DNA from: Gemmata obscuriglobus | Lineage (GTDB): Bacteria > Planctomycetota > Planctomycetia > Gemmatales > Gemmataceae | Assembly (NCBI RefSeq): GCF_008065095.1 | Contig: NZ_CP042911.1 | Location: forward strand, 3,000,001-3,032,000 | Direction: 5' to 3' | DNA length: 32,000 bases | Shown here: positions 3,784-22,862 of the stretch, piece after piece | Layout: each line of letters starts with the position of its first letter | How positions within the stretch are numbered: position 1 is the stretch's first letter | The notes under the pieces: model-generated | What the model saw: the letters and a program-made list of their open reading frames with translations, nothing else | Databases searched by the model: none | Told to the model about the DNA's origin: nothing | Position numbers and translations under genes: made by a program

Positions 3784-3877
3784 GAAAAACCTTCTCCGCC
3801 GCGTGTGTGATCTTCTGGATACCAAGAAGGTGTCTGCAGCTTTCACAAAGGAACGGCAGTCACGTACCAGATGTGGT

Positions 3878-6014: not shown

Positions 6015-7010
6015 TCACAGCCCTACCTTTGCTGCGACATTCTGCCTGAACAACGATCCGTCGCGAATGTACCTTCTCATGACCAGCAGCGACTTGTGTC
6101 CCGACTGGTCTTGGATATCGCGGTCGCTCGCCCCCGCTATGGCGGCCTGCGTGATGAGCCCTGCGCGAAGCGAGTGTGCGGCGTAACCCCGCGCGGTATG
6201 TCCCGCTGCGACCAAGCTGCGTTTGACGACCTCAGCCACCGTGCGGTCGGAGAGCCGCGTACCCATGACGTGCCCGTGCTTGTTTACAGAGCGAAAGAGG
6301 GGACCCTCGAGAATTGCTGCCTGATCGACCCACGCGAGCACCGCGCGCACCGGGCAGGTACCCTCGTGCTCACCGTACGGTATCCCGAGCGTCCGACCTT
6401 CCTGCACTTGGTCCGTTTTGCTCTTTCGGATCGTGACGACGAGCCCCTCGTCCGTGAGGGCCACATCAGTCGCGTCGATCCCGACAAGCTCGCTGCGCCG
6501 CATGGCGCCAGCGAACCCGAGTAGGAGGAGCGCGCGGTCGCGAACACCTAACAACCCTTGAGGCAGGTGCTCGACCATCTCGCGGATGTGCTTCGTGAGG
6601 GTGGGCTTCTTGTGATTTTGAGCAACACCTTTATCGCGCCGGATCCCTGCCCAGACCAACTTGACCTGTGCGGATTTCGTGGGCGAGTCGAAACCCGCCG
6701 TGCGGTGGGCATCGGAGATGGACATCAGGCGGCGTTGTAACGTACTCGTCTTCAATTCCTGGGAGCGGTCGGCCAAATAGTAGGCAACCGTGTCTGGCGC
6801 GGCCGGAAGCGGGGAGCGAGCGTACTTGGCGCACCAAGAGGAGAAATCCTTCCAATCCGAGCGTTGCGCGCGGCGAGTGTTCGGGGCTCTGGACTTCTCA
6901 ACGTACCTGTCGGCCTCACTGCCGATGTCTTCGAACCGCTCGGCGTGGTGTTTCGCCTCTTTCGGAGAAGAGGTTCGGGAGGCTTGCAAATTGGCTCGTT
7001 CGGGCGACAT
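6015..7010 (-). CDS. Tyrosine site-specific recombinase (Cre/XerD-like)
   Basis: N-terminal SAM-like core-binding region (TRRAQRSDWKDFSSWCAKY..PAAPDTVAYYLAD). Catalytic region with AMRRSEL (R), HSLRAG (HxxR) and GHKSLLVMRRYIR (H..Y). The start is ATG 7010 or GTG 7037. Confidence 0.85.
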   Translation of the reverse strand: MSPERANLQASRTSSPKEAKHHAERFEDIGSEADRYVEKSRAPNTRRAQRSDWKDFSSWCAKYARSPLPAAPDTVAYYLADRSQELKTSTLQRRLMSISDAHRTAGFDSPTKSAQVKLVWAGIRRDKGVAQNHKKPTLTKHIREMVEHLPQGLLGVRDRALLLLGFAGAMRRSELVGIDATDVALTDEGLVVTIRKSKTDQVQEGRTLGIPYGEHEGTCPVRAVLAWVDQAAILEGPLFRSVNKHGHVMGTRLSDRTVAEVVKRSLVAAGHTARGYAAHSLRAGLITQAAIAGASDRDIQDQSGHKSLLVMRRYIRDGSLFRQNVAAKVGL

Positions 7011-7183
7011 GGCGGGTGTAAACGTGAGCGTCAGCACTCAGTATCGCTCACAGCGGACCGGTTGCGAAACCCGAAATCGTTGCCGTCGCTGTCGCACAAC
7101 GGCTTAATGCGTTCTGGCTCAAGCAGCGCCGAGCCGCGAGCAAGGAAGGCTGGAACCAGGAGGTAACCGTTCACGTAGCTTGA

Positions 7184-7764: not shown

Positions 7765-8029
7765 TCAGGTCGAGGTGCGTGCAGGGATGATCGAGGGTGC
7801 CACCCCTCCGGTCCTGGCGGTCTGCATGGCCTCGGCCAGGAAGGCCAACACATCGCGGCCTTGTTGCCGGCAGGTCGCCACCACGGTCAGCATTCACTCG
7901 ACGAACCGGCTTCCACCGGCCGAGTCCGTCCCGAAACTCATCTTCCGCCAACATACGGCGTGCCGCAATGCCCGCTCGGCCGCATTGTTCGTCGGCTCGA
8001 CCCCTTCGACGGCAGCGAACGTGTACAGG
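7765..8029 (-). pseudogene. 3' fragment of a single-ORF IS66-family (ISBst12-like) transposase gene, with an additional in-frame TGA
   Basis: The minus-strand translation is LYTFAAVEGVEPTNNAAERALRHAVCWRKMSFGTDSAGGSRFVE*MLTVVATCRQQGRDVLAFLAEAMQTAR...ST*. This is the conserved IS66-family C-terminus. The internal TGA at 7894-7896 sits where homologues would have an Arg-type codon. The fragment continues the 5' half found at 18566-19676. The left IS end lies somewhere in 7721-7764 and is not resolved. Confidence 0.8.
8022..8029. repeat. Target-site duplication, left copy (TGTACAGG)
   Basis: Identical 8-mer at 18566-18573, directly abutting the opposite terminal inverted repeat. Confidence 0.85.
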
Positions 8030-8060
8030 GTACGCGCTCGGCGAATCACGTGCTTGACGG
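8030..8060. repeat. IRL of the IS66-type element
   Basis: GTACGCGCTCGGCGAATCACGTGCTTGACGG. Its reverse-complement partner is at 18535-18565. Confidence 0.8.
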
Positions 8061-8099
8061 GTAAGTTATGTTGGCGGCATCCGTTCCCTTCTTCGGAGG

Positions 8100-8450
8100 A
8101 TGCCCGTGTCCGACTCGTCCGCCCGGCCCCGCTACCACCCGGCCGCCGCCCGCCGCTGGGCCGACCGCCTCGAGCGCTACGCCGCCCGCCCCACGACGGT
8201 CGCCGCCTTCTGCGCCGCCGAGGGCGTGTCACCGTCCAACTTCTACCTGTGGCGGCGGAGGCTCACCGGGGCTGGTCTCGAACCGGCCGACGGCCCGGCC
8301 GTCGTGCCCATGCACGTCGCACCACCTCCTGCGCCCGCCGCCCCGATCGAGCTGGCCCTGCCGTCCGGCACGGTCGTTCGGCTCCCCGCCGACGCCGGCC
8401 CGGAACTGGTCGTGGCCATCCTGCGCGGGCTGGAGGGGCGGCCGTGCTGA
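8100..8450 (+). CDS. tnpA: IS66 Orf1 (TnpA, HTH protein)
   Basis: FCAAEGVSPSNFYLWRRRL motif. Its stop overlaps the tnpB GTG. Confidence 0.8.
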   Translation: MPVSDSSARPRYHPAAARRWADRLERYAARPTTVAAFCAAEGVSPSNFYLWRRRLTGAGLEPADGPAVVPMHVAPPPAPAAPIELALPSGTVVRLPADAGPELVVAILRGLEGRPC

Positions 8451-8806
8451 CCCTGCCCGCCACCACCAAGCTCTGGTTCGCGGCCGCCGTGGATTTGCGG
8501 CTCGGGTACGACGGGCTGGCCAACCTGGTCCGCACCCAGCTGTCCGGCGATCCGCTGAGCGGCCACCTGTTCGTGTTCACGAATCGGTCCGCGAACCGGG
8601 TCAAGGTGCTGTACTGGGGCGGCCACGGGCTGTGCCTCTGGTGCCAGCGGTTGGAGGCCGGGCGGTACCACTTCCCTGAAGCCACCGCCACCGGGATCGA
8701 ACTGACGGCGGCTCAGTTCGCCATGATCCTGGACGGCATCGACCTGTCCCGCGTCCGCCGGTTCAAGCGGTTCTCCGCCGCCCCGCCGCCACCTCGCGCT
8801 ACCTGA
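8444..8806 (+). CDS. tnpB: IS66 Orf2 (TnpB)
   Basis: GTG start. The sequence (M)LTLPATTKLWFAAAVDLRLGYDGLANLVRTQLSGDPLSGHLFVFTNRSANRVKVLYWGGHGLCLWCQRLEAGRYHFP is the conserved IS66 Orf2 pattern. Confidence 0.85.
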   Translation: MLTLPATTKLWFAAAVDLRLGYDGLANLVRTQLSGDPLSGHLFVFTNRSANRVKVLYWGGHGLCLWCQRLEAGRYHFPEATATGIELTAAQFAMILDGIDLSRVRRFKRFSAAPPPPRAT

Positions 8807-8831
8807 CGGCGGCCGCGGGGTTGAAGGGGGC

Positions 8832-10396
8832 ATGGACGCCACCACGCTCGCCCCCGATGCGCCGCTGCCGGACGACGTGCCCACGCTCCAGGCGATGGTT
8901 CGTGAGTTGCTCACCGAACTCCAGAAGCTCCGGGCCGAGAACGCCGAACTGAAGACCAAACTCGACGCCGCCCTGAAGCACCGGTTCGGCCGCCGGAGCG
9001 AACGCCGGACGCCACCGCCGGTGCCCGCCGCCCAGAAGCCACCCCGACGCGATGAGCACGGTCGCTCGCCCTTGCCCGAGCACCTCGAACGGCGGGAGGT
9101 CGTCCACGACCTGACCGCGGCCGAGAAGCTCTGCCCGTGCTGCGGCCGGCCCCGCGCGTGCATCGGAGAGTAGACGGCCGAGCAACTCGATCTCGAACCG
9201 GCCACGTTCTTCGTCCTCCGCACGGTCAAGAAGAGCTACGCCTGCCGCCACTGCGACCCGGCGGCGGTGCCGGCCGAGCAGCGCATCACGACCGCCGGTC
9301 CGGCCCAGGTCGGCCCGATCGCCAAGGGGTTGTGCGGTCCGGGGCTGCTGACCCACGCCGTCACCGCCAAGTTCGCCGACCACACGCCGGTCCATCGACT
9401 CGCCGGCCAACTGGGCCGGTCCGGGTGACGATCGCGACCTCGACGCTGGGCGACTGGCTGTTCCGGGCGTCTGAGTTGCTGACCCCGCTGTACGAGTTGA
9501 TGCACGCGCGAGTGCTCCGGTCGCGGGTGATTCATGGGGACGACACGGGCGTGAAGTTGCGGGTGCCGGGGAGCCATCGCACGGCCAAGGCGTACATCGG
9601 GGACGCCGACCACCCGTACGTCCTGTTTGACTTCACGACCGACTACACGGCCGACGGGCCGAAGCAGTTCCTCGCGGGCTACAAGGGCTACTTGCAGGCG
9701 GACGCACTGGCCCAGTACGAGGGGTTGTACGGCGAGCGCAAGGTCCAGCACGTGTGCTGCGTCGCGCACGCCCGCCGCAAGTTCGTGGCCGCACACGACA
9801 CTGGTGACGAGCGGGCGGCCCAGGCTTTGGGGTTGTTCGGCCGGTTGTACGCGATCGAGCGGGCGCTGCCACCGCTGCTGCCGCCGTCGGACGACCCGGC
9901 AGTTCGGGAACTTCGACGGCATCGCGAAGAGCAACGCCGGGCGCTGCGGGGGCGTGACGCCGAACCGGTGTGGGATGAACTGTCGAAGTGGCTGACCGAG
10001 CAGAAGCCGGGTGCGCTGCCGAAGTCGCCGCTGGGAACCGCGATCGGGTACGCCACGAACAACTGGGGGGCGTTGAAGCGATACCTCGAACAAGGCTTCC
10101 TGGCGCTGGACAACAACCTCAGCGAGAGAACGCTCCGGGCAATCGCACTCGGACGGAACAACTGGGGCGTGTTTGGCAGTGCGGGAGGCGGGCGGACGGC
10201 GGCGGTGCTGTTCTCGGTCATCGGCACGTGCAAGCATCTGGGGCTCGATCCGTTCGCGTACCTGCGGGAGGCGCTGCCGGGGGTGTTCGCGCCAGGCGAG
10301 AATCAGACGACCGAACGACTAATGGACGGGCTACCGGACCGATGGCTGTTGAATCGAACACGGGACCAAACCGCCCCGGATGCGGCCACCCGGTAA
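8832..10396 (+). pseudogene. tnpC: IS66 transposase (TnpC) disrupted by an in-frame TAG and a 1-nt deletion
   Basis: The leucine-zipper N-terminus and CPCCG zinc motif are followed by TAG at 9171-9173 (..ACIGE*TAEQLDLEP..). The frame is then lost at the G-run 9423-9425 (..LGRSG* / VTIATSTLGDW continues in the next frame). The downstream part keeps the DDE-region motifs (HGDDTGVKL, LQADALAQY, LALDNNLSERTLR). Confidence 0.85.
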
Positions 10397-10420
10397 ACCT
10401 CGGCACCTCCCACGCTTCAA

Positions 10421-10465
10421 ACCCGCCGGTCCAAGGCCGGCGGGTCGCACTCCGTGCGTAACTAC
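10421..10465. repeat. Internal, diverged IRR-like copy at the end of the IS66 core
   Basis: Alignable to 18529-18565: shared ACCCGCC.GTC.A.GG and the G.GCGTA.C tip, with indels. The match to IRL is poorer than that of the distal copy. Confidence 0.5.
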
Positions 10466-10658
10466 CTCAGGGATACGACATCCGAACAGTTCGATATTCA
10501 GCCGACCGGGCGGACACATTCTGGCGCGTCAAGCGGGAGGACAACGCCGCCAGAGCACCGGTTCCGAGAAGGACGACGACCGACGGGGCAGCCCCGGCGG
10601 GGCGTCGGCTACCATGCCGCCCCCGCCCGACCTGAAGTTGCTTCGGACCCAACTCGGT

Positions 10659-11747
10659 TTACCAGTGCGGGGCGGCCAAGGCGTTCATCAACCGGAGCGA
10701 GAACGGTCGGGCCTGCTTCGACGCACGCGCGGGCATCTTTTCCGGCGTGGGCGTGGGCGTGGGCGTGGGGGCTGGCGGAGGCGCCCCGCAGTTGCTGCTC
10801 GGCGGGGACGAAGGCGGCGGGTTCGGGCGGTTCCCGCTCGCCGTCACCAGGGTGGCCAACCCGGCCACGATCAACGCCCCGGCCGCGATCGACTGCCAGG
10901 TCAACGGCTCACCCAACAAGACGCAGCCGAGCATCATCGCGATGATGGGGATGACCCAGGTGTGCGACATGAACACCGGGGTCGGCAGGCGCTTAAGGGC
11001 GACCATGTACGCCCCGAACCCGAGGACCGAGCTGACCGCCGTCAGGTACCCCCAGGCCGCCCAAGCCGGGGCCGTCGGTGCCGGGAGCGGTTCGCCGGCG
11101 GCGGCCGCAGCGACCGCGAGCGGGATGGCGCCCGCGATCATCTGCCAGCCGATGACGGTCCACAGGGCGTCCTTGTTCACCCGGTACTTGACCGTCAGGG
11201 CACCCGCGGCGTAGCACGCGGGGCCGAGCACCAGGGCCGCGAGGTTGGTCAGGCCCGCATCGACCGTGACGCCGGCGGGCAGGACCAGCACGCCCACGCC
11301 CACCGCCCCGAGGGTCATGCCGAGCAGACCGCGGGAACTCGGCCGCCGGTGCGCGATGACGGCTTCGAGGCCGGTCACGATGATCGGCCCGAGGCCGAAG
11401 AAGAGCGACACGAGCCCGGAGCCGGCCGAGCGGGACGCCAGCGTCGCCAGCCCCGTCCCGCCGCCGCAGAGCAGCAGCCCGGCGGCCGCGAGCGGCAGGA
11501 TTTGCTGGCGGGCGGGCATCACCGGCCGGCCCAGCGCCCGCAGGACGAGGAGCACCGCGGTCCCGGCGGCCGCGAATCGCGACGCGGCCATGGTGAAGGG
11601 CGGCCAGCCGCCGTGCGGGCCAACGGCGACCCGCATCGCGAGGAACGTCGTACCGGTGATGACACACAGGGCCACGAAGCAGGCCATGCCGAGCGGGCTC
11701 AGGCGCGCCCACCACGGGGCCGCTTGAGGGCGGGAGTTGTTCGTCAT
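10659..11747 (-). CDS. EamA/DMT-superfamily transporter with Pro/Thr-rich C-terminal tail
   Basis: ATG at 11747 is preceded by GGAGGTG. The protein has ten-helix-type hydrophobicity and an EamA-like repeat. The tail reads PAPTPTPTPTPEK. Confidence 0.8.
   Translation of the reverse strand: MTNNSRPQAAPWWARLSPLGMACFVALCVITGTTFLAMRVAVGPHGGWPPFTMAASRFAAAGTAVLLVLRALGRPVMPARQQILPLAAAGLLLCGGGTGLATLASRSAGSGLVSLFFGLGPIIVTGLEAVIAHRRPSSRGLLGMTLGAVGVGVLVLPAGVTVDAGLTNLAALVLGPACYAAGALTVKYRVNKDALWTVIGWQMIAGAIPLAVAAAAAGEPLPAPTAPAWAAWGYLTAVSSVLGFGAYMVALKRLPTPVFMSHTWVIPIIAMMLGCVLLGEPLTWQSIAAGALIVAGLATLVTASGNRPNPPPSSPPSSNCGAPPPAPTPTPTPTPEKMPARASKQARPFSLRLMNALAAPHW
10744..10767. repeat. (GGCGTG)x4 tandem hexanucleotide repeat inside the transporter tail
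   Basis: Four perfect units read directly in the sequence. On the minus strand they encode the (PT)n stretch. Confidence 0.9.
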
Positions 11748-11917
11748 TGTCACCTCCGCGAGGGTAGGAACCAACCGGCTTTCGATGCTGGCCGGCTGCA
11801 CCTCTCTAACGGACTTAGTCCTCGTCGGTGTTTCAAGTATTTGCATTCAAAAACCACACGGCCTTGGCGAATGGTACGCCAAGGCCGTGTGGTTTCGTTA
11901 GGTCGAACGGGTCTGAA

Positions 11918-13150
11918 TCACTCCGCGTTCGCGTAGTACAGTGGGCGGGTGCGGTTCTTGCGCTCGTCGCGGAATCCGAACAGCTTCAGCCCGTGGTACC
12001 GCCCCTCGAGGTCGAACAGAGGCCCGTACACCAGCTCGCCGCCCTCCTTGCGCGCGACCTGCCCGTTCGAGTGCATCGGCAGCAGGTACGGGCGGGCGTA
12101 AGAGTTCGACGGGGCCAGCGCCAGTCGCGGCTCACCGGGCTTGGCGTGCACCGAAGCGCGGATGTACAGATCGGTGCCGACGGCCTCGCGCACGACCCGT
12201 TCGACCAGCCCGAGGTCGCGCACGGCGTGGTTGTTCGCGGTGTACCCGACCGAGAGGTCGGCCGCCAGGAACCACAGGTCCTCGGCGTCCTTCGCCGCGA
12301 TGCTGCCGACTTGGTGCCCGCCGACGGCCCCGAACACCTGGACGGTGTGCTCGTAGGACCAGCCGCGGGCGCGGAGGTTGACGCTCGACACCAGGCTGTC
12401 CGCCTGAGACGCCAGCTGAGCCCGGAAGTCTTCGTTGCTGTTCGCCTGCTCGCGCACGTTGACGATCTCGTCGATAACGAACTCAAACCACCGGTCGTCG
12501 AGCACGTTGCGCGGAGACGCCAGCACGACGTCGAGCGCGCCGAGGAACGCCCGCGCGTCGTCTTGCAGGGTCTCCAGGAACAGGTCGGCCTGGCGGGCGT
12601 CCAACCCCGCGTCCGCCGAGTGCAGGTGCCCGTCAGCGACGAGCACGAGCCGGGTCGGCACGTCGGTCACCTCGGTCAGAGCGTCGGCGACCCCCTGGAG
12701 CACGTTGACGGACGTCCAGTCTGCGAGGTCGGGGGTGAGCGTACGGCCCGTCTTCAGCTCGTTCCCGATCTTGACGCCGCCGGTGATCATGGCCACGGTG
12801 AACTGCTTGTGGCTCAGCATCCCGTTGATCTTGTCGAGCAACCCGGTGCGGACGCCCAGATCGTCGAACAGGGTCGCTTTCACGCTCAGCGACGCGGCCT
12901 TGAGGACGGCCAGGGCGTTCTCCGCCGGGCTCAGGTCGGGCTTGCACTTTTTCAGGAGTTCGTCCTTCCAGTGCTCGCGCCCCTGGCGCAGTTCCAGGGT
13001 GAGGGACTGCAGGGCGTCCGGGGTCAGGACCGTCATCGGCGGCGGCGGGAAGGTGCGCCCTGCCTCGATCTGTTTGCACGCCTCCGGGAGGATGGACAGC
13101 TTGTCGAGGCGGGAGGCGTCGGACAGGGCGGACCGGAAGGGCTGGGCCAT
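11918..13150 (-). CDS. Hypothetical enzyme, tentatively DIT1/PvcA-like (isonitrile synthase family)
   Basis: Soluble 410-aa ORF. TPDLADW...PTRLVLVADGHLHSADAGLD and ...LYIRASVHAKPGEPRLALAP....LLPMHSNGQV resemble the PvcA patterns (pDlgEe..., ivSDGrvF.d, iRLSIH...K..i.l...tPWH). The call rests on recalled motifs only. Confidence 0.35.
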   Translation of the reverse strand: MAQPFRSALSDASRLDKLSILPEACKQIEAGRTFPPPPMTVLTPDALQSLTLELRQGREHWKDELLKKCKPDLSPAENALAVLKAASLSVKATLFDDLGVRTGLLDKINGMLSHKQFTVAMITGGVKIGNELKTGRTLTPDLADWTSVNVLQGVADALTEVTDVPTRLVLVADGHLHSADAGLDARQADLFLETLQDDARAFLGALDVVLASPRNVLDDRWFEFVIDEIVNVREQANSNEDFRAQLASQADSLVSSVNLRARGWSYEHTVQVFGAVGGHQVGSIAAKDAEDLWFLAADLSVGYTANNHAVRDLGLVERVVREAVGTDLYIRASVHAKPGEPRLALAPSNSYARPYLLPMHSNGQVARKEGGELVYGPLFDLEGRYHGLKLFGFRDERKNRTRPLYYANAE

Positions 13151-13345
13151 GATGACACTCGCGTCGGGTGGCAGTGAGCAGCCCGACCGACCTTCGGCCG
13201 GGCTACCCCGACTACGGGCGAGCGTATTTCCGTCGTTGCAGAGATGTTGCTGTGGTTTTTTTCAATGCCGTTAACCCATGCAGAGCAATGACTTAGAGGC
13301 CATGAGAACTTATTTTTCACCGCATCACTTTTTTCGTGCAACAAC

Positions 13346-13367
13346 CGCCCGTTCAGCGCCCGTTCAG
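13346..13367. repeat. Perfect tandem 11-bp direct repeat (CGCCCGTTCAG x2) in a divergent intergenic region
   Basis: Read directly in the sequence. It lies between the divergently oriented genes 11918-13150 (-) and 13504-14247 (+). Confidence 0.9.
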
Positions 13368-13503
13368 GGGGGTAGAGGGGAAATCAGCCAGCAAGAAAAC
13401 CGTCTTGGAATTTGACTTTCGCGAAATCTTCGCTGCAAGCCGAGCAGCTTCATGTGTTCGAAGGTTGGAACTGAGAAAGCCTCACCACGAAGGAGAACAC
13501 CCC

Positions 13504-14247
13504 GTGGCTGACTCCACCGGCCCGAACCAGGTGCCGATTAACGACGCCGTTAACGCGGGGCCTGACCCGCCTGTTCCGCTCGAATCGCCCCTCCCGCCGG
13601 GCTGGACCGACCAGCCGTGCGGTTGCTCGCGCCGGTGGCACTACGCCGACGAGGAGTACCGGTGCTTCGTTTACACGCGGTACACGATCTGCTCCCCGGC
13701 GTGTACCTGCGTCCTGACCACTGAAGTGGCGCGGGGCCAAGCAACGGCGCGCCGTCTGGGCCAACAAAGCGCAGACTGCGATGCCAGCGCAGCGCTGCAC
13801 GCCTGGAAAGTCCACCTCCTCTTCACCAACCGGAACTTCGACGAGCAGCAGGGAGATGATCAATTCAGCCGGTACCTCGCTCAGATTGCCTGGAACAGTG
13901 CGCGCGAGTGGTACCGCGGCTTCTACCACACTGACACCTTGATCGGTCCGATTTTGCCGGTCTCCTTCGTCAACCCCGACGACGGCTTGGCCGCCGGCGC
14001 CGTGCCGGAACCGGCCGACCAGGACGAGCCACAACGCCAGACCGACGAGCGCATCTGGATCGAAGAGCTCGCGGAACTGATCCCGAACGAATGGGATCGC
14101 AACGTCTTCCTCGCGCGCCACAGGGACGGCCTCTCGGCCGCGGAAATCGCGCAGCAAGCGGGCTGCGCCCCGTACGCCGTTTATCAGTCGCTGTGGGGCA
14201 GTTATGCGATTCTGCACGCCCGCCTTCTTGACCAGTGCGACGGCTAA
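13504..14247 (+). CDS. Atypical ECF-like sigma-70 family protein with Cys-rich N-terminal extension
   Basis: GTG at 13504 is preceded by GAAGGAGAA. Region-2-like FSRYLAQIAWNSAREWYR. Region-4-like DRNVFLARHRDGLSAAEIAQQAGCAPYAVYQSLWGSYAILHARL. The N-terminal part contains CGCSRRWHYADEEYRCFVYTRYTICSPACTC. Confidence 0.55.
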   Translation: MADSTGPNQVPINDAVNAGPDPPVPLESPLPPGWTDQPCGCSRRWHYADEEYRCFVYTRYTICSPACTCVLTTEVARGQATARRLGQQSADCDASAALHAWKVHLLFTNRNFDEQQGDDQFSRYLAQIAWNSAREWYRGFYHTDTLIGPILPVSFVNPDDGLAAGAVPEPADQDEPQRQTDERIWIEELAELIPNEWDRNVFLARHRDGLSAAEIAQQAGCAPYAVYQSLWGSYAILHARLLDQCDG

Positions 14248-14353
14248 ACGCCAGCAAACCACCGGGCGACAGAATTCTGTCGCCCGAGTTCCCGCAGCGC
14301 GGGAGTAACAAGGTTGAAGTGACCTTGTCATCCTCGCAACAAGGAGTCATTCC

Positions 14354-15058
14354 GTGAACGACAACGAGCTGGATAGCAACGGCCGGGACTCGCCGAGCGA
14401 GCCAAAATACGAACCCAGGAACATTTCGCCCCTGCGGTACCTGTCCGTCCTCACGGGCGAATCGGAGTGGACGCCGGAGGAGCAGGACGCGATCGAACAA
14501 GACCCCGTTCTTCGGCAGAGGATCACTCGCCTGATGCTGGCGATGTACGCCCCTCTTCTGGGTCCCAAACCGACACCGCCCGATGCGAAGCCAAAGGGCC
14601 CCGTCGCCTGGCGCGAACCCAAAAAGTTCAAAGACGCTCCGTGTGAGGATGAGGTCGTGGCGGCCGGCCTCGGAGCCCACGCCGGTGCCGCGGCCGCGCC
14701 GAAAGAGGAGTTCACTTCCGCGTCTCGCGTGTGGACGGGAAAGCCGGCGTGGTCGAATCGCCCGTCCGATTGGCCTGAAGAACTGTCGGTGGTTTACGAA
14801 GTTCTTGACGGCGACCTGGAAGTCACCATCAAGGGGCTCGAGGACGTGAGCACGGCGCGTTACCAAGCGGTACTGGTCGCGGTCGGGAATCCCGCCATTC
14901 CCATCGATTCCTGGTTTCGGACGTCGAAGTTCAAGGCGCGTACGCTGCAACTCGACCAATCATCGAGAGCGGGCGCACAACAGCTGTACGTTTTTCTCGC
15001 CGAACGGCGGGGGAAGAAGACCGAGCTCGTCGCCCAGCCGATTCCCATTCGGCTCTGA
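14354..15058 (+). CDS. Hypothetical protein (no TM helix, Pro/Lys-rich linker)
   Basis: GTG start 7 nt after AAGGAG (14341-14346). Same strand as, and directly downstream of, the sigma-like gene. No recognisable domain. Confidence 0.55.
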   Translation: MNDNELDSNGRDSPSEPKYEPRNISPLRYLSVLTGESEWTPEEQDAIEQDPVLRQRITRLMLAMYAPLLGPKPTPPDAKPKGPVAWREPKKFKDAPCEDEVVAAGLGAHAGAAAAPKEEFTSASRVWTGKPAWSNRPSDWPEELSVVYEVLDGDLEVTIKGLEDVSTARYQAVLVAVGNPAIPIDSWFRTSKFKARTLQLDQSSRAGAQQLYVFLAERRGKKTELVAQPIPIRL

Positions 15059-15091
15059 TGTCGCCCGTGGCCAACAACTGGAGGAGAACTC

Positions 15092-15748
15092 ATGAACGTG
15101 CTCTCTCGCCTCGTGCTCGCGGTCGTCGCTGCGCTCTGGCTGCCTTTGGCCGCTCTGGCCGATGGAACCCAGCCGATGGCCGTCCAGGCCGGCTCCTGGA
15201 CGGTGGGCGAGAACGGCGTCAACGTCGACGCGGCGTGCTTGAAGAAGAAGTTGAAGGAGCCCACCGCCGGTACCTCGCTCAGCCTGCACGAGGGCAAGGT
15301 AGTCGTCGAGGTCCACGATGGCACCAAGTGGGTCGAGCACTCTACCCTCGCGGACGCTGTGACGAACGGTCACCTCGTGATCGAGGGAATCACGCAGGGC
15401 CGCCATCCCGACACGGGGGAAACCATCGGCCGGTTCGACGCGATCAAGATCAGGCCCGGTACTAAGCCGCTCGACGGGAATGTGCGGGTCACCTTCCGCG
15501 AACCGACGGTTTTCGGGGCCGAGGGCACGAAGGTCGCGGATTTCAAGGAAGCCGCCGGCTTGGTCGGTGACATCCAGCAGTACGCCAAGACCTTTGGCCT
15601 GCAGCCCAACGAGGCGCGGTTCATCGCCCAGCACGCCTACTGGGCTTTGGACCGGCAAGGCAAGGCGACTAAGGACGAGGTGGCGAAGCTGACGAAGATG
15701 AGCGAGGAAGAGTTCACCAAGTGGCTGATTAAGAACATGAAACCTTAA
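15092..15748 (+). CDS. Hypothetical secreted protein
   Basis: Signal-peptide-like N-terminus MNVLSRLVLAVVAALWLPLAALA/DG. It starts 33 nt after the preceding gene. Confidence 0.6.
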   Translation: MNVLSRLVLAVVAALWLPLAALADGTQPMAVQAGSWTVGENGVNVDAACLKKKLKEPTAGTSLSLHEGKVVVEVHDGTKWVEHSTLADAVTNGHLVIEGITQGRHPDTGETIGRFDAIKIRPGTKPLDGNVRVTFREPTVFGAEGTKVADFKEAAGLVGDIQQYAKTFGLQPNEARFIAQHAYWALDRQGKATKDEVAKLTKMSEEEFTKWLIKNMKP

Positions 15749-15792
15749 CGGTTGCGTCAGCGACTCCGTCAAGTGCGAATAAAATCTACGTC

Positions 15793-15825
15793 GCCGGGGT
15801 TCGAGGACCATCCTCGAGCCCCGGC
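15793..15825 (+). terminator. Strong GC hairpin (14-bp stem, 5-nt loop) between the secreted-protein gene and the CHAT gene; possible terminator or attenuator
   Basis: GCCGGGGTTCGAGG-accat-CCTCGAGCCCCGGC with a single G.U pair. There is no clear U-tract after it. Confidence 0.35.
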
Positions 15826-15894
15826 TTGCGACTTGAAAGCCTTTCAACTTGCTGTTCCTGGGCAGGTGCCTAGGTGCCTGGAGCCGGCTCAAAG

Positions 15895-18507
15895 ATGAAC
15901 TCGCACACCGACTCGCCGAACCAATCGGGTGAGAGTCACGAGGAAACCGACCAGTCGGCGCCTGACGAGGTCAGTACTCCGCCGTTTACTTTGCAACTTC
16001 GGCTCGCGCGGCAGGCACTCGCGAACAATAATCCAGAGGCCGCGCTCTGTTTCCTCTATCCGGTGTTTGGCCTCAAACCTCACTCGTTTCACCTCCGGCG
16101 TCCGTTCCTCCCGTCCCCATCCAACTTCTCGTCGAAGATCACGGAGGTTGTGCCGGAAGCCAGCGCACTTTTGTTGGTGGCGGCAGCGCAGACCGGCCAG
16201 ATTCGTGATGCCCTTGCGGTCGCGATGGCGGCAAACGGGCTGGTGCAGACCGTCAACGGCAACCACAAGGTCTTTTCGAGTGCGAGTGACTGGCTCGAGG
16301 TTTTGGAGAAAGTAAGCGACCTTAACCTGCAACGGGGAACCGCGGCTCGGCTTGCTCGCTGGGCGCGAGAAGGGGTTCGCGTTCTTCGCGAACTTAGCGG
16401 GGCTGAATTGATTGAGGACGTCGTCGGTCGGGACACTTTGAACGAGTGGTTCGAACAACCGCATCTCTTGATCGATCAACCTGCCAACGCCGAGGCACTC
16501 GCCGAATACTTGGCGGGCGAGCCGGTAACAGACCGGGAGATCGCCACGCTCGACATCGACGCCTTCATGCACGCGATTGAGCATCGTGATGGCTCTATCC
16601 CCGAAGGTGCGGTCGCCATCGCAATTGGACTGGCTCACGGCCTCAAAGCCCGCTCGTCTGAGGCACAGATTCCGGCGTTCATCAAGGGCGTGTTCGGCAA
16701 GGCCGTTACCGGCTCTTTCCTCGCGGAGCTCGAACGTCGGCGCGTTCAACCGGAACGCGCCGTGGAACTCGCGCTCTTCGCCCTCGAACACGACCAGGGG
16801 CTGACCGACGCGGGCCGGGCCGAGTTAACCGGGCGAGTGGTCGAACGTCTGGCCCAGCTTCCGCCGACTGCCCGCAAGTACCGCGAGCGGTTGCTCGGCC
16901 AGGCCGTTGAGTGGGCGCTCACGAACCAGGCCAGCGGGCATAGTCGGGAGAACTGGCCTGTGGTCGTGCTGTGCTTGGACCGCTTCCCCGGACCGCCCGC
17001 GCCGCGCGAGGCGTCCCCCGTCGTTGAGCTCGAGCGGGGTTCGGCTCCTATTACCGGACCAACGGACGAGGTCGGGGCGGACGTCTTGGCGGCTGGCGAA
17101 TCGGACGGGGCGCCCGGCCTGACGGTTTCGGCGGCCGGGGAAGAGGAACCGAGGGCCGTGGGCGCCTTTTCGTACGACGAGCTGAGCTCGGCCGCCCTGG
17201 AAGCTGAGCGTGCGGACGAGACGCTTCCGCGCCGCGGTGCGCTCGAGAACACGCCCCGGCTGCCAGGCGATGGCCACCGCACTCTGGGCGAAGTGGTTGA
17301 CCAAAGTGACCCTCGCCTCGCCTCGCTGCTCGGCCGCTATCCCGGTGACCCGGAGCGACCCGTCGTCTTGCTCGGTTTTCAGCCCGTCGGCCAACGCCTG
17401 CTCGTCTACACCGTCGAAGCGTCGGAAGGGAACCCACTTCGCTGGCGAGCGCGAGCTCTTGATGGCGCCGTGGACACGATCCAACGCGCCGTCGAAACCT
17501 TCGACGGCTCAATCGCGCGGGCCTGGCAGGATCATAAGCGCGCCGAGGTGCCCGACCGGAGCCGCGCGCTGGCCGACTCACTGCTCCACGAACTCGGCGC
17601 GCATCTCGCCGAGGTTGATGACCTGCTCAGCGCGGCGGTGTCCGACCTGTTGGCCGCCCACGATCCCGAGCCCAACATCCTGCTCACCGCCGCCGGCGCG
17701 GCCCAAGCCCTCCCGCTTGATTTGTTGACCGTCCGGTTGGCCGGCGGTTCGGAGCGGCCGCTCGTGCACTGCGGGAGCACCGTTCGTTGGACACCGGGGC
17801 TGGTGCTTCAGGAGCGAATGGACACCACCGGCAGGCGGTCGGGTGAGGGGACCGGCCGCTCGCTGGGGTGGCTCGCGTACCTGCCCGAACACGACCCAAA
17901 CGGTCGGTTCGGCGGCTTCTTCAGAGAGAAGGAGGTCGAGAGCGAAAAGGATCGCTGGTCGCCCGGGGCGAAGTTCCTCCAGCGAACGAAGGGCCGTGGG
18001 TGCCAAGGGACGCAGGCGACCGCAGGGAATCTGCGGTCGTATTCGGCTGGTCAGTTCAGCGACCTTCTCGTGTTGGCCCACGGCTGCTGGGACCGAGGCG
18101 CGGTCGTGCTTTGGGATGAGTTGGTGGATTCCCTTGGGGCGGCCCAGTTGGACACGTTGTTCCTGGTCTCGTGCACGATAGGCCGACTCGGGTGGTCAGG
18201 TGCTGACGAGCCGATCAGTCACAGCTTGTTGTCCAACATTCTCGAGCAGGGGTCGGTCTCGCACCTGCTAGCCTTCCGCCACACGATTCCCGATACACCG
18301 GCGGTAAAGTTCGCTCTCCGAGTGCGCGAAGATACGGGTCGCGATCTGGCGCTCGCGCGGAGCGAGTTGTTAAAGTCTTGGTTCCCAAATGGGAGCGCGG
18401 CAACGAATGTTTGCCACCAACACCAAGTGAACACAGGTGATGCGTTCGAACGTTTCGTTGGTGCGGTCTCGATTGCGTACTCGGCAAAACTGGAACCGGT
18501 CCGGTGA
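15895..18507 (+). CDS. Large CHAT-domain (caspase-like) protease with ~560-aa helical N-terminal region
   Basis: The C-terminal ~300 aa show the CHAT pattern: ILLTAAGAAQALPLDLL, the His in LLVLAHGCW (codon 18079-18081) and the Cys in LFLVSCTIG (codon 18172-18174), then GSVSHLLAFRHTIPD. ATG at 15895, with an alternative GTG at 15874. Confidence 0.75.
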   Translation: MNSHTDSPNQSGESHEETDQSAPDEVSTPPFTLQLRLARQALANNNPEAALCFLYPVFGLKPHSFHLRRPFLPSPSNFSSKITEVVPEASALLLVAAAQTGQIRDALAVAMAANGLVQTVNGNHKVFSSASDWLEVLEKVSDLNLQRGTAARLARWAREGVRVLRELSGAELIEDVVGRDTLNEWFEQPHLLIDQPANAEALAEYLAGEPVTDREIATLDIDAFMHAIEHRDGSIPEGAVAIAIGLAHGLKARSSEAQIPAFIKGVFGKAVTGSFLAELERRRVQPERAVELALFALEHDQGLTDAGRAELTGRVVERLAQLPPTARKYRERLLGQAVEWALTNQASGHSRENWPVVVLCLDRFPGPPAPREASPVVELERGSAPITGPTDEVGADVLAAGESDGAPGLTVSAAGEEEPRAVGAFSYDELSSAALEAERADETLPRRGALENTPRLPGDGHRTLGEVVDQSDPRLASLLGRYPGDPERPVVLLGFQPVGQRLLVYTVEASEGNPLRWRARALDGAVDTIQRAVETFDGSIARAWQDHKRAEVPDRSRALADSLLHELGAHLAEVDDLLSAAVSDLLAAHDPEPNILLTAAGAAQALPLDLLTVRLAGGSERPLVHCGSTVRWTPGLVLQERMDTTGRRSGEGTGRSLGWLAYLPEHDPNGRFGGFFREKEVESEKDRWSPGAKFLQRTKGRGCQGTQATAGNLRSYSAGQFSDLLVLAHGCWDRGAVVLWDELVDSLGAAQLDTLFLVSCTIGRLGWSGADEPISHSLLSNILEQGSVSHLLAFRHTIPDTPAVKFALRVREDTGRDLALARSELLKSWFPNGSAATNVCHQHQVNTGDAFERFVGAVSIAYSAKLEPVR

Positions 18508-18534
18508 GGCCCATTCGCTGGTGAAGGTACCCGC

Positions 18535-18565
18535 CCGTCGAGGGTGTGATTCACCGGGCGCGTAC
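18535..18565. repeat. Distal IRR of the IS66-type transposition unit
   Basis: CCGTCGAGGGTGTGATTCACCGGGCGCGTAC. Its reverse complement matches IRL at 25 of 31 positions. It is followed immediately by the TSD copy. Confidence 0.8.
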
Positions 18566-18573
18566 TGTACAGG
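18566..18573. repeat. Target-site duplication, right copy (TGTACAGG)
   Basis: Identical to 8022-8029. Confidence 0.85.
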
Positions 18574-19676
18574 GCCGGTTCGACGGCCATCAACTCGCGG
18601 CACACGCCCGCCGTGATCGCGCACGCGCCTTCAGCCCCTCGCTTGAGGAAGCCCCGCACCCCGGCCCGGAGCCACCCGAGGTAGGTCTGTCGGAACCCGC
18701 GCCGCGTCAGCGTCCCGTCCCGCACCCGCTTCCACTGGTCGAGCAGGATGTCGGCGTAGGTCAACAGGTCCTCGCCGACCCCCGACCCGCCGTTCCCCCG
18801 GTCGATCATGGCCTGGAAGTCTCGTCGGAGGTGCGCCCAGCAGACTTGGCGCTCGCACACAGGGAGGTGGTCGTAGGCCGAGTATCGGTCCGTGGTCAGC
18901 ACTCCGGGATGGCCCGCGATCAACTCGCCCAGCACCTTCCGGGCACGGGACAGGCGGACCAGGAACACGGTCACGCGGGCGGTCACCGCGGCCCACAGCC
19001 AGCCCCGCTTGCGCCCCTCCGGCCACCCGGTCTCGTCCACGTTCGCGGGCTTCCCAACGACGTAGGCACGGGCCTCCTCAACGACCGGCCCCAAGGCGAC
19101 CGCGGCCTTCCGCTGGAGGCCGCATACGGCGGCCGGGCTGATCGGTACCCCGGACAGGTCCTGGCACAGCCGCGCGACGCCCCGCTTGCCGATCCGGTAC
19201 GCCCCGCTGAGGAGCGCGCACACCGCCTGGACCCGCGGCCCGTACCCGCCTCGGGCATCACCCGGTAGGGGCGGGCGGTTGATACGCCCGCAGTTCGGGC
19301 ACGCGAGCCGGTGCCGACGATATTCGGTCACCTGCGGGCAAACCGGCGGTAACTCGATGATCTGGTGGCGGAGCGGTTGCGCATCACCCCCGGAGAGCGC
19401 GTGTGCGCACCGGTCACAGGTGCTCGGCCGCAACTCGATGACGTTGTCCGCGGGCAGGTCGGAACGGGAGTGCTTAGGGTGCCCCGGCTGGCCGCCCTTG
19501 CGCCTGCTGGATGGGGCCTTCGGCGGGGCGGCCTTGACGTGCGGCGGGTCGGACGACGGGGGCTTTGAGGAGTTCGTCGAGTTCTGCCCGAGCCGGGCTT
19601 CGAGGTAACGGATGTATGCCTGCACCGCCGGGGGAAGCGCGTCGAAGACCTCAGGTGGTAGCGTTGGAGATGCCAT
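18566..19676 (-). pseudogene. 5' fragment of the same single-ORF IS66-family (ISBst12-like) transposase gene
   Basis: MASPTLPPEVFDALPPAVQAYIRYLEARL..NSSKPPSSDPP..RRKGGQPGHPKH..CDRCAHAL..ACPNCGR..ANVDETGW..LTTDRYSAY..VCWAHLRRDF..CRELMAVEPALY, where homology stops at the insertion point. The rest of the 498-aa track ORF is read-through into the IRR and the antisense strand of the CHAT gene. The right IS end is approximately 19700-19730 and is not resolved. Confidence 0.8.
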
Positions 19677-19750
19677 GCCGCAGAAGGAATACGGAGCAAG
19701 ACTCACAGCGGCCACAACCGTGAACGCCTACACCAGGAGATAAATAGCTG

Positions 19751-20033
19751 AGACTTTAGTACTACTCCGTTACTTCGCCACAACTAATTAAATTGTCGCG
19801 ATTTATGGCGATCTACACCTACAGGTCCGTGCCCCCGCAATGGGTTCAAATCCCAGCGATTCTGGCTAGTCCGTTCACGAGAGCAGCAAACATTCCGCCG
19901 TGGCAGTGAGCATTCCATTTGACTCAAGTCCAGATCCTACAAGATGTTCCGTCAAGGTGCATTCCGGAGGGGTGTGCATAACACGTTGTAAAACAAGCAG
20001 TTGCGGCGAGGTAACGGAGTAGTATTAGAGGCT
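19751..20033. repeat. IR-bounded ~280-bp non-coding element (MITE-like)
   Basis: Terminal inverted repeats: 19757-19779 TAGTACTACTCCGTTACTTCGCC and 20005-20028 GGCGAGGTAACGGAGTAGTATTAG. They share a 14-bp perfect core (TACTACTCCGTTAC) with 2-3 mismatches overall. The interior is visibly AT-richer than its surroundings and has no ORF. Confidence 0.5.
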
Positions 20034-20074
20034 CTGAGGGGCCGGCAATGCACGCCGCCGGCACCTGGAATTGC

Positions 20075-21475
20075 CTAGCGGATTACCCTGGCCACCGCAT
20101 CCAGTGCCTCTTCTGGTACGAAGAGACGATCCGTCTCTGGCAAGGGCTGGGAAAGTGTTCTGAAGCTGTCATCGTCCCGAATAGGGGCCGCCCCTCCTGA
20201 GTCATCTACAAAATAACCCCATTCGCTCGGCGCCTTCGATAACAATGAAAACTTCGGGTGGTCCCGGACGAGATAAGATTCTGGCTCCTTGAAGCCACTA
20301 TCGATAAGCGCCTTGTTGATCTTCGGATACGCCTCGGGTGATTTCAGAAAACTACTAATCTGTTCAGAAGATCGCGGAACAGATTTGAATAAGGTGCGGG
20401 TTCGTATCCTCTTGGCGAGATCGACCACGATGGGATCCGCTCCATCAGCCTGAGCCACAATTTCGACAAGCACGTGCAAGGCGAAGTCATCAGCGGACAA
20501 CAGGGCTTGAAGTGTCACCACTTTGCCGGCGACCATGTCCATCAAAGGCCCAACGATTCGGTCGCGAGAGAAAGCCGCGAATTGTCCGTCGCGCACGACG
20601 GTTTTTAAGCGGCGCAGAAAGAGCGCCACCATCCCCTCCGCCGCCCTGACGGTGCGGTGGTAGTACACGGCTTCGTACATGGCACGTCGTGCCACCAAAA
20701 AATGCTCGACCACGCGTCTCGATTTGGCCCGATCGAATCCCACGACAAGTGTCTTTTCGTTTGTTGTCCCCAGTGCGCACGTCGAGATCAACCGACTGAG
20801 GTCATATCCCCCAAACGTAACGCCGCACTGCTGGCTGTCACGGCGAAGGAAATCGCTGCGGTCGACGTCGATATCGCTATCCAGTAGTCGCGGCAGGTAG
20901 GGCAGGTGATACTCGCCAAGCAAAAATGCACCGATCCGTTCAGCCATCCCGCGCTCGTAAGATTCGAGCATTTGGTGCAGTTCGCCCTCGGGCCAAGCGA
21001 GCAGAGCCTGTCCCACGAGAACGTGCCACTTCAGCCTGCGCCCTCCCACGGCGCCTGCTGCGGCTGGAAGCCCGAGCCCCTGTCTCCAATTACCCTCGTC
21101 GTAGTCCTCACCAATGATCTCGCGCTCCCATGCGTGCGAGAGGGGCCCGTGCCCGAGGTCGTGAAACAGCGCCGCGAGTGCGAAGTCCCTGATCGCCACC
21201 TCGTCGGGGAGCAGAAACGGTGTGATCGAGTCGCGCCCTACTTCTTGAATGTGCCTGCCAAAGAGTACCGCGAGGTAGGCAGCGCCGATTGAATGAACGA
21301 GTCGAGAGTGCTCGCCGCCGGGGAACACTAGATGCACAAGCCCGAGCTGGCGGATGTGGCGGAGCCTCTGAATTTCGCGGGTACGAAGCACCTCCACGAT
21401 GAGCGTCTCCATGCCCCTAAATTCCATGAGGCCGTGGACACTGTCTTGGATACGCCTTACACGACTCGACCGCAT
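20075..21475 (-). CDS. SAMHD1-like HD-domain phosphohydrolase (dNTP triphosphohydrolase-like, COG1078 type)
   Basis: IQDSVHGLMEF...REIQRLRHIRQLGL..FPGGEHSRLVHSIGAAYLA...ALFHDLGHGPLSH...LDSDIDVDRSDFLRRDSQQCGV. The H..HD..D metal ligands are all present. Confidence 0.8.
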   Translation of the reverse strand: MRSSRVRRIQDSVHGLMEFRGMETLIVEVLRTREIQRLRHIRQLGLVHLVFPGGEHSRLVHSIGAAYLAVLFGRHIQEVGRDSITPFLLPDEVAIRDFALAALFHDLGHGPLSHAWEREIIGEDYDEGNWRQGLGLPAAAGAVGGRRLKWHVLVGQALLAWPEGELHQMLESYERGMAERIGAFLLGEYHLPYLPRLLDSDIDVDRSDFLRRDSQQCGVTFGGYDLSRLISTCALGTTNEKTLVVGFDRAKSRRVVEHFLVARRAMYEAVYYHRTVRAAEGMVALFLRRLKTVVRDGQFAAFSRDRIVGPLMDMVAGKVVTLQALLSADDFALHVLVEIVAQADGADPIVVDLAKRIRTRTLFKSVPRSSEQISSFLKSPEAYPKINKALIDSGFKEPESYLVRDHPKFSLLSKAPSEWGYFVDDSGGAAPIRDDDSFRTLSQPLPETDRLFVPEEALDAVARVIR

Positions 21476-21478
21476 AGC

Positions 21479-22807
21479 TCACCCCAGCAATTCAATAAGC
21501 GCATCGATCTCGGATTCTCTGCCTCGGGCCGCCCTAGAGAATGTCCGTAACTGCCTTAGCCGTTCTCTGAGGCGCTGCTTACTCGCCGCCGGCATTCTGA
21601 GCACTGCGTTGGTGCGCGGCAGGTGCTGCAAGAGCTGTTCGAGTTCCGTCTCGATCGCCACGCTCCCGCTACCGATCCCGGACAAAAAGGCGCCCAACTT
21701 CTGACCACACAGATGAACGAGTTCCTTCGCGGTCGCTCGCCTTTCTGGAGCGGCTACCAGCGCCCGCGCCAAGACCGCCCGAAGAGGGTCTGGCACCGAG
21801 TCCAGCCTGACGCGTTGCTCCCACTGGGTGCGCATCCGGTCTCGGATTTTTCCCTCGAATGCTTTTCTCTCAGCGGGGGTCGATGTGCGTGGAACTCTCT
21901 CATTGTCGTCGATGAAGAGAAAACTCCCAGTCACCGCCTTGTACACCGTTGCCCCTAGCGCCCAGACATCGAACTTTCTGGGCTCTGAGGGGTAGGGGCC
22001 GTCTTCAAAAAGTTCCGGCGCGCGCGTGCGAAGACTGCCGGTGACCGACAGTTCGTGTGTGAAATCGCAGGACGTGCGGCAGATGCCGAAATCAAGCAGA
22101 ATGTACGAACCGTCCTTCTGCCCGATGTTGTCCGGCTTGATGTCCCCGTGAACGAGTGCCAGTTCGCCGTGCAGGTACGCTATGGCCTGGGCGATGTCGT
22201 ACAAAAGGTTCGCGGCCTCGTGGGTGCCATTGGCACGCCAGGCGTCATTGAGGGCGAAGGGTAGCTTTTCTTCAACGAGAAACTTGTCGCCTTTGACGTT
22301 CTGCAGCGGATGTGTGGCGATGATGTTCGGGTGGCGCATCGCGAGCGGGTGCGACTGAAGTTCTCGGTCTAGAATGAGCTCCTGCTGGGTGCGGTTCCCG
22401 AGTAACCGTTTGAGTACAACTTCGCGCTGCGCCTGCTTCCACTTCGCGTGGTAGACCCTCTTTTGGCTCCCCGTTCGAGACATCGCGGAGATAATCGTGA
22501 ACCCTTCGGGTGGAATGAGGTTGATGCAATCAATGACGGCATCAGGATCGTTTTGGTGCGCGCGGATGAATTTAACAATAAAATTACAATCAATCGGAGA
22601 CTGAGGACCGTTGCTGAGCTGCTCAATGAGTTTGCTCAAAAGGCTCGCTGCATTCTCATCCGTCCAGGGATGATCGAGAGCGGTAGCCATCGCCGCCCAA
22701 TCTTCATCTGACAGTTTTGCGAGAGGATGAAACGTATCGTCAATCCTCGCACTCTCGTCGAGAAGCGATTCGAGTACTGATTTGGTTTTTTCCCCCAGGC
22801 CAGCCAT
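21479..22807 (-). CDS. Ser/Thr protein kinase with ~100-aa unknown N-terminal region and helical C-terminal tail
   Basis: EVVLKRL (Lys), LVHGDIKPDN (catalytic loop), LLDFGICR (DFG), LRTRAPELF (APE). There is no classical Gly-rich loop. I chose ATG 22807 because the 150-aa upstream extension of the track ORF runs into the IS. The stop is 3 nt from the HD gene ATG. Confidence 0.8.
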   Translation of the reverse strand: MAGLGEKTKSVLESLLDESARIDDTFHPLAKLSDEDWAAMATALDHPWTDENAASLLSKLIEQLSNGPQSPIDCNFIVKFIRAHQNDPDAVIDCINLIPPEGFTIISAMSRTGSQKRVYHAKWKQAQREVVLKRLLGNRTQQELILDRELQSHPLAMRHPNIIATHPLQNVKGDKFLVEEKLPFALNDAWRANGTHEAANLLYDIAQAIAYLHGELALVHGDIKPDNIGQKDGSYILLDFGICRTSCDFTHELSVTGSLRTRAPELFEDGPYPSEPRKFDVWALGATVYKAVTGSFLFIDDNERVPRTSTPAERKAFEGKIRDRMRTQWEQRVRLDSVPDPLRAVLARALVAAPERRATAKELVHLCGQKLGAFLSGIGSGSVAIETELEQLLQHLPRTNAVLRMPAASKQRLRERLRQLRTFSRAARGRESEIDALIELLG

Positions 22808-22853
22808 TTTATGCTGCCCTGTGGTGAAGCTGCTACGTTGGTTGCTGCCAGTC

Positions 22854-22862
22854 GTCACGAGA
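22854..22862. repeat. Target-site duplication, left copy (GTCACGAGA)
   Basis: Identical 9-mer at 24596-24604, each abutting a terminal IR. Confidence 0.85.

Follow-up and report, generated by a model that had tools for sequence, protein, structure and literature searches.

An IS66-family element of Gemmata obscuriglobus with a six-gene block in front of its right end

The locus described here raises the question of how six genes came to lie between the ends of an insertion sequence (IS) of the IS66 family and whether they were moved by it. It occupies positions 8030-18565 of a 32-kb stretch of Gemmata obscuriglobus DNA, which was analysed as a whole and is called the window; all bare coordinates are window positions. 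The same locus is present at 100% identity in the G. obscuriglobus sequence CP025958.1 (~4.997-5.018 Mb) and in the draft contig ABGO01000027. In an earlier reading of this DNA, referred to as the original prediction, three copies of the terminal repeat were described and the six genes were thought to have been mobilised by an alternative right end. Our analysis points instead to a single IS66 element in which an 8.07-kb block of six genes lies between a subterminal hairpin and the terminal 38 bp. This is the layout of the transporter elements named tIS66, and the loaded unit was most likely transposed as a whole, a reading to which we assign a probability of roughly 0.62.

A nested unit with two terminal repeats

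The element is bounded by a 32-nt inverted repeat whose left arm (IRL, 8030-8061, plus strand) and right arm (IRR, 18534-18565) are 81% complementary. Exact occurrences of the 20-nt core pattern of this terminal repeat number two in the 32-kb window, with 0.01 expected by chance. The IRL tip, GTACGCGC..., aligns with the IRL tips of ~25 canonical IS copies in the long-read metagenome-assembled genome (MAG) CAVYEC01. The same tip octamer is common to IRL and IRR; tips vary among relatives, and the shared octamer is consistent with the two arms being cognate ends. On both sides the arms are abutted by TGTACAGG, which forms an 8-bp direct repeat (8022-8029 and 18566-18573). The inverted repeats start with GTAC and are flanked by an 8-bp duplication, as is characteristic of IS66-family ends (5'-GTA, 8-bp duplication).

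The 10,536 bp between the tips of IRL and IRR interrupt the transposase gene of an ISGob2-like IS of the IS66 family. When 8030-18573 was deleted in silico, a continuous open reading frame (ORF) on the minus strand was obtained, encoding an IS66-family transposase of 425 aa with the Pfam domains DUF6444, zf-IS66 and DDE_Tnp_IS66, the last of which (residues 158-420) runs unbroken through the junction. Five homologs of the restored protein with 73-86% identity, one of them named ISGob2 by its source, align without gaps across the junction between ...EPALY and TFAAVEG.... In a tblastn search with the protein P0016, residues 1-378 matched one side of the insertion and residues 376-453 the other, and these matches overlap by three residues because the target was duplicated. 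Moreover, the empty site is found in an uninterrupted relative of the outer IS (L154, 87% nucleotide identity), which reads ...GGCGAACG TGTACAGG GCCGGCTC... and thus contains the octamer once, at the place where the window has it twice. The single octamer in the empty site and the restored reading frame therefore identify the 10,536-bp segment as inserted DNA and its flanking octamers as a genuine target-site duplication (TSD) of 8 bp. The unit sits nested inside another IS.

The right end was examined against 56 related loci from species-representative genomes, which were retrieved in a scan with the repaired TnpC, and 80 further loci from a metagenome scan. The canonical element, defined by the ~25 near-identical copies in CAVYEC01, has a length of 2.49 kb. 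Most of the copies checked in this MAG have matching 8-bp flanks of their own, L015 being one that does not. The order of features in the canonical element is an IRL starting GTAACGCCCCGGCGGATCAC..., the genes tnpA-tnpB-tnpC, the tnpC stop, ~25 bp, a hairpin and finally 53-54 bp which end ...ACGTGATTCGCCGGGGCGTTAC at the tip. In blastn comparisons with these copies the homology of the window begins at 8026-8039 and extends to 10458. Its last part, as supported by blastn and right-end alignments, is the subterminal non-coding region of the IS (10397-10458, plus strand) with the conserved hairpin at 10422-10444 (CCCGCCGG-TCCAAGG-CCGGCGGG). The remaining 38 bp of the hairpin-to-tip stretch are found at 18528-18565 (minus strand), where the canonical right end resumes exactly as it had stopped at 10458. 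Joining 10458 to 18528 yields a hairpin-to-tip distance of 52 bp compared with the 53-54 bp of the relatives, so that nothing is duplicated and at most 2 bp are missing. Complementary breakpoints without duplication are the mark of one IS66 that a simple insertion has divided ~38 bp from its right tip. Apart from this, the window element resembles the canonical Gemmataceae/Planctomycetota MAG copies (L015-L031 in CAVYEC01, ~2.49 kb), with 78-85% identity over IRL, tnpA/B/C and hairpin, the same core of the inverted repeats and the same TSD length; it differs from them by the 8,069 bp inserted into a stretch which they have uninterrupted.

The comparison also decides what lies at 10421-10465, where the original prediction had placed a diverged third copy of the repeat. 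This sequence corresponds to the hairpin plus the next 14 nt, up to 10458, of the hairpin-to-tip stretch. The invariant core of the inverted repeat, GTGATTCGCCGGG...TAC, was found neither at 10421-10465 nor across 10400-10480. Besides, the local alignment of 10421-10465 to IRL or IRR was no better than that of random window tiles, 87% and 5% of which, respectively, score as well. The sequence at 10421-10465 is not an end, and the element has two terminal repeats, not three. Related copies end 53-54 bp past the hairpin, and most of those checked in CAVYEC01 have TSDs of their own. Two further statements about the distal side were borne out, namely that the distal repeat is the one paired with the IRL and the TSD, and that IS homology there is limited without a second IS copy, since it comprises the last 38 bp (18528-18565) and starts 20 nt past the stop of the gene for an 877-aa protein.

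A GC-rich hairpin 25-30 bp past the tnpC stop keeps its position in IS66 relatives (L003-L150) that differ by 20-30% in sequence, and compensatory changes were observed in three of the seven pairs of the subterminal hairpin. It may be a terminator, a transposase site or a site for a host factor. For annotation it follows that a conserved subterminal hairpin can pass for a decayed inverted repeat.

With tnpA, tnpB and an inactivated tnpC, all genes of a three-ORF IS66 element are present. tnpA (8100-8450, plus strand) encodes an IS66 accessory helix-turn-helix (HTH) protein of 116 aa (NCBIfam NF047593 with 52.7 bits at a cut-off of 28; a weak match to Pfam HTH_Tnp_1). Its stop is overlapped by the GTG start (8444) of tnpB (8444-8806, plus strand), which encodes the 120-aa IS66 Orf2 protein (PF05717, E 7e-32; NF033819, 98.8 bits, cut-off 50). 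tnpC (8832-10396, plus strand) matches the families LZ_Tnp_IS66 (PF13007) and DDE_Tnp_IS66 (PF03050) of DDE transposases (E 2.5e-64) and is a pseudogene. In the alignment with five relatives an in-frame TAG at 9171-9173 stands where these have CAG, and a second lesion, a 1-bp deletion after 9424, was identified by frame analysis and by the same alignment. Therefore, the element is now non-autonomous and could move only with a transposase provided in trans. Proteins identical to its TnpB and TnpC are recorded solely from the present locus in G. obscuriglobus. Short-read (Logan) contigs also break within tnpC: L002 and L061 end, overlapping each other, at 8939-8960, and L062 ends at 8939, while the other end of L061 lies at 19203 inside the outer IS. 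These contig ends may be due to related repeats at other places in the genome or to a drop in coverage in a stretch of ~70% GC.

Passenger-carrying relatives

IS derivatives with passenger genes have been defined as transporter ISs (tISs) (PMC9330008). Among the 25 Pseudomonas IS66 entries in ISfinder, seven are 'tIS66' elements of 2,876-4,875 bp with one listed passenger product each (PMC12888890, Table S5), namely ISPa75 (fosZ), ISPsp18, ISPa128, ISPa120, ISPre3, ISPpu30 and ISPsy43 (PMC12888890). As in these elements, tnpA-tnpB-tnpC are followed in the window element by passenger DNA between the DDE transposase gene and the IRR, the inverted repeats begin with GTA and the TSD has 8 bp. In contrast to them, it measures 10.5 kb, carries an 8.07-kb cargo with six ORFs and resides in a planctomycete, whereas the Pseudomonas elements have 2.9-4.9 kb and one passenger product (PMC12888890). 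The original prediction was thus right in calling a cargo of this size unusual for IS66. Moreover, ISPa75 has been seen with ten different TSDs, whereas the window element was found as a single copy with a dead tnpC. The element is unusually large for the known tIS66 kind to which it belongs, and no new transposition mechanism is established by it. With it the size range known for passenger-carrying IS66 elements, hitherto below 5 kb and with a single passenger listed, reaches 10.5 kb and six genes, and such elements are documented in Planctomycetota.

In 73 metagenomic relatives we determined how far the IRR core lies from tnpC. It was located at most 260 bp from the tnpC end in 58 of them, and two contigs were too short to tell. 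The other 13 had no IRR core within 260 bp; four of these were without a clear distal IRR and nine had an IRR 1.26-2.6 kb downstream. These nine relatives (~12% of the 73) carry about 1.2-2.6 kb of extra DNA in the tnpC-IRR interval. It consists of a nested IS of the IS630 family in six loaded relatives (L095, L100, L106, L110, L111 and L119), of a nested ISAzo13 IS in L127 and of genes for a HAD hydrolase and a 249-aa ORF in L098; the ninth, L145, is described below. No matching 8-bp flanks were found in L095, L098, L106 and L110, for which both flanks were available and chimeric assembly across a repeat is possible. L100, L111 and L127 had no usable left flank or IRL and the tips of L119 were uncertain, so that a clean TSD was obtained for L145 only. 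Several of the IS630-bearing relatives resemble one another in the sequence at the proximal junction, which points to a single composite lineage of ancient origin and continued spread. When the junctions of the nested IS630 elements were mapped onto canonical right ends, the result was too noisy for use. In L119 an apparent degenerate IRR-like sequence is located proximal to the nested IS, in addition to the distal IRR. Three other loci were rejected as loaded elements. In L012, which had appeared as a 12-kb loaded element, tnpC is directly followed by a normal though slightly degenerate IRR, the distant IRR being part of another copy; L046 and L058 are ISs of deleted or hybrid structure that carry no cargo.

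Of particular relevance is L145 (contig Ga0126377_10026088, 235-4788), a loaded IS66 of 4,554 bp with a perfect 8-bp TSD, CGTTTACT. It is among the closest relatives of the window element (84% TnpC identity), and its cargo is a gene for a 591-aa fusion of an extracytoplasmic function (ECF) sigma factor with an FGE-sulfatase domain, placed after tnpC. Its clean TSD shows that IS66 elements of this clade are transposed together with their load. On the distal side of the cargo lie 236 bp from the right end of a second IS copy with ~80% identity, so that ~190 bp are duplicated and diverged. This arrangement indicates that the cargo of L145 was captured between two different IS66 copies, in line with the entrapment proposed in PMC12888890. 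Both elements carry ECF sigma-family cargo past tnpC, and the proximal copy of L145 is truncated ~40-46 bp from the expected tip, similar to the breakpoint in the window; unlike L145 with its ~190-bp duplicated right end, the window element has no duplication.

Capture of the cargo and movement of the unit

The cargo block of 8,069 bp (10459-18527) is separated by 62 bp from the tnpC stop and by 38 bp from the tip. TACC is present at both cargo junctions (10463-10466 and 18528-18531), which may reflect microhomology or chance, and at the ends of the block neither inverted nor direct repeats exceeded the level of shuffled controls. In the order of events that we favour, the cargo would have entered an intact IS by a single insertion that spared both ends and all three tnp genes. 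Its joining may have been illegitimate or microhomology-mediated, in keeping with cargo ends that share TACC and lack repeats. The IS66 transposase, acting on the IRL and the displaced cognate IRR, would then most likely have moved the whole 10,536-bp unit into the ISGob2-like IS and duplicated TGTACAGG, and the nonsense mutation and frameshift in tnpC would represent later decay of the element. We infer that capture preceded the last transposition because the insertion fell within the one ~100-bp stretch of the 2.47-kb IS that can take it up with no damage to the tnp genes or to either inverted repeat, which is what would be expected after a transposition filter. It is likely that cargo and IS moved as one unit. 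The original prediction had also described the cargo as mobilised in one piece; of the two forms it considered, the transporter-IS architecture is upheld by the six genes within cognate ends and the 8-bp TSD, while an alternative right end or one-sided composite is not, as there is no proximal IRR.

Several observations weigh against a movement of the loaded unit. The cargo-bearing element is known from one locus and from G. obscuriglobus assemblies only, where the host was absent from the genome-scan returns and other host copies were therefore not enumerated. In these assemblies no second insertion with a different TSD was found that would prove unit transposition. Furthermore, tnpC is a pseudogene, the cargo junctions bear no mechanism-specific signature, and the duplicated right end of L145 means that the clade has no single capture route. 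The element could instead have been loaded in place. A plain 2.47-kb IS66 would then have transposed into the ISGob2-like element and generated the TSD, and the 8.07-kb block would have been inserted afterwards without ever being moved by the IS66 transposase. This fits the same structural data, as nothing in the sequence orders the two events, and it accords with an element that is single-copy with a dead tnpC and with the recombination-prone island around the locus, which holds an integrase, other ISs and defence genes. However, it requires a chance strike on a 2.5-kb IS in a 9-Mb genome and then on an interval of ~100 bp, ~4% of the IS, and the placement of the cargo matches that of the known tIS66 elements and of loaded relatives, one of which has its own TSD. 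Loading in place is a serious alternative that we nevertheless hold to be rather unlikely.

Other histories make use of a second right end or a second IS copy. Window element, ISEcp1/IS1247-type mobilisation and composite transposons have in common that adjacent genes lie between a left IS end and a remoter right end. The cargo might once have been flanked by two IS66 copies, of which the left lost its last 38 bp and the right all but its last 38 bp; the history of L145, where 236 bp from the right end of a second copy survive beyond the cargo, and the entrapment by two different IS66 elements proposed for ISPa75 (PMC12888890) are precedents for this. Yet two independent deletions would have to be complementary within 2 bp, with neither overlap nor gap, a coincidence of about 1 in 500. 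A composite transposon has two IS copies, whereas homology to IS66 on the distal side of the window is just 38 bp, and both tips read GTACGCGC. We consider such an origin very improbable. Still less credible is the bypass proposed in the original prediction, in which a complete IS66 core ended in a diverged IRR at 10421-10465 and the transposase preferred the better solo IRR further away, as in ISEcp1 or a one-sided composite. A GC-rich palindromic stretch does lie at the expected distance past tnpC, and the two IRR-like sequences of L119 suggest that this route is possible in the family. Nevertheless, the proximal site has neither the core of the inverted repeat nor above-chance similarity to it and equals the hairpin conserved in all relatives. 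ISEcp1 keeps its native IRR beside the IS and uses a weak surrogate end, whereas the window has no native IRR at 10400-10480. At this locus the bypass is refuted by the comparison with the canonical copies, in which the distal 38 bp take up the sequence at the very point at which the proximal homology breaks off.

For the single loaded element that we favour, the position of the cargo leads to a more general proposal. The tnpC-IRR interval just 3' of the hairpin, ~38-46 bp from the tip, could be a preferred 'cargo bay' of the Planctomycetota IS66 clade, with a defined breakpoint and a specific mechanism of capture or end replacement. We regard this as speculative and improbable. If true, IS66 elements would be vehicles for multi-gene regulatory modules, as the window element and L145 both carry ECF sigma-family genes.

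Cargo genes, outer IS and surrounding island

The six passenger ORFs (10659-18507) include no transposase or recombinase according to family scans. The first gene (10659-11846, minus strand) encodes an EamA/DMT-family exporter (PF00892, E 1.4e-23; YedA-like below the cut-off), which is unrelated to the EamA protein encoded nearby (2878-3846). The second (11918-13150, minus strand) encodes a protein of 410 aa that is distantly PvcA/DIT1-like (weak PF05141 match, E 0.002). It has ~10 homologs with up to 50% identity, some of them with PF05141. In L067 such a homolog adjoins an EamA gene whose product is 52% identical to the first cargo protein, and in L063 another is divergent from genes for an ECF sigma factor, a 291-aa protein and a TPR protein. 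Neither of these two contigs has annotated IS66 genes. The sigma gene and the large-protein neighbours in L063 were rejected as counterparts of the cargo, since the gene order is analogous but homology to the sigma and 877-aa proteins of the window is undetectable.

The remaining four genes are on the plus strand. The third (13504-14247, start possibly at 13336) encodes an ECF-type sigma-70-like protein (TIGR02937, E 6e-9, below the cut-off; Sigma70_r4_2, E 0.0026). For the fourth (14354-15058, 234 aa) and the fifth (15092-15748, 218 aa with a hydrophobic N-terminus), Pfam and NCBIfam searches gave no family match. The sixth (15874-18507) encodes the protein of 877 aa, annotated with 870 aa. 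It has no Pfam match, including the CHAT profile, even at E values up to 10, and no NCBIfam match. According to an AF2 model and Foldseek its C-terminal part is predicted to adopt a caspase fold of the CHAT/separase type. The model of the C-terminal 398 aa is of moderate confidence (pLDDT 71), and its top matches are the Csx29 TPR-CHAT protein and separase (E 3e-9 to 1e-5, TMq ~0.5). We therefore describe the protein as CHAT-like at the level of the predicted fold only. Its three homologs among 1.84 billion representative proteins retain the LAHG...LVSC motifs (His...Cys dyad), and no relatives of the CHAT-like C-terminus were returned by a scan of metagenomes. PADLOC found no defence-family match for any cargo protein. 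Taken together, the cargo looks like captured chromosomal modules of planctomycete type.

It had also been suggested that the sigma/CHAT module travels horizontally. Our data give this no support: the 877-aa protein is a near-orphan, the module was found at a single locus, and the cargo is carried by none of ~130 related IS66 loci, so that we see no evidence of its horizontal spread. Exact-protein look-ups of TnpB and the 410-aa protein returned the present locus only; the 877-aa ORF as read here has no exact record, and its annotated form of 870 aa has been recorded from G. obscuriglobus alone. The contig L062, although from a different run, is not an independent occurrence, as it represents the same strain (99.97% identity).

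The outer ISGob2-like IS is a single-ORF element that spans from 19731 to ~7783 and is itself decayed. Its 5' part (18566-19731, minus strand) has the tip at 19731 and the start of the transposase ORF within 19676-19715. An in-frame TGA (7894-7896) lies in the 3' part of the transposase gene, which stands beyond the insertion at 7783-8029 (minus strand). A relative of the outer IS is present in ERZ26867449 in four identical copies of 1,906 bp (L151-L154, 87% identity). Each of them has a 104-aa Imm32-like ORF after the transposase and hence is another passenger-bearing element of the IS66 family; this Imm32-like 3' part is without a counterpart in the window. Another inverted repeat, with 36-nt arms (19750-19785 and 19999-20034, 86% complementary) around 213 bp, starts ~20 bp beyond the tip of the outer IS. 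It occurs only once in the window and may be a remnant resembling a miniature inverted-repeat transposable element.

Searches of the window for tRNA genes and Rfam families were negative. At 86-2706 the window encodes a class II prokaryotic Argonaute (PADLOC pAgo_II, E 2e-186) and, next in order, an Aga helical-REase/bSEFIR-TIR partner (E 1e-90). This pair heads an island of low GC content (0.56-0.62), which also contains a Cas4-like gene as well as genes for a tyrosine integrase (6015-7037), an HD-domain protein (20075-21475) and a Ser/Thr kinase (21479-23257), the last three all on the minus strand.

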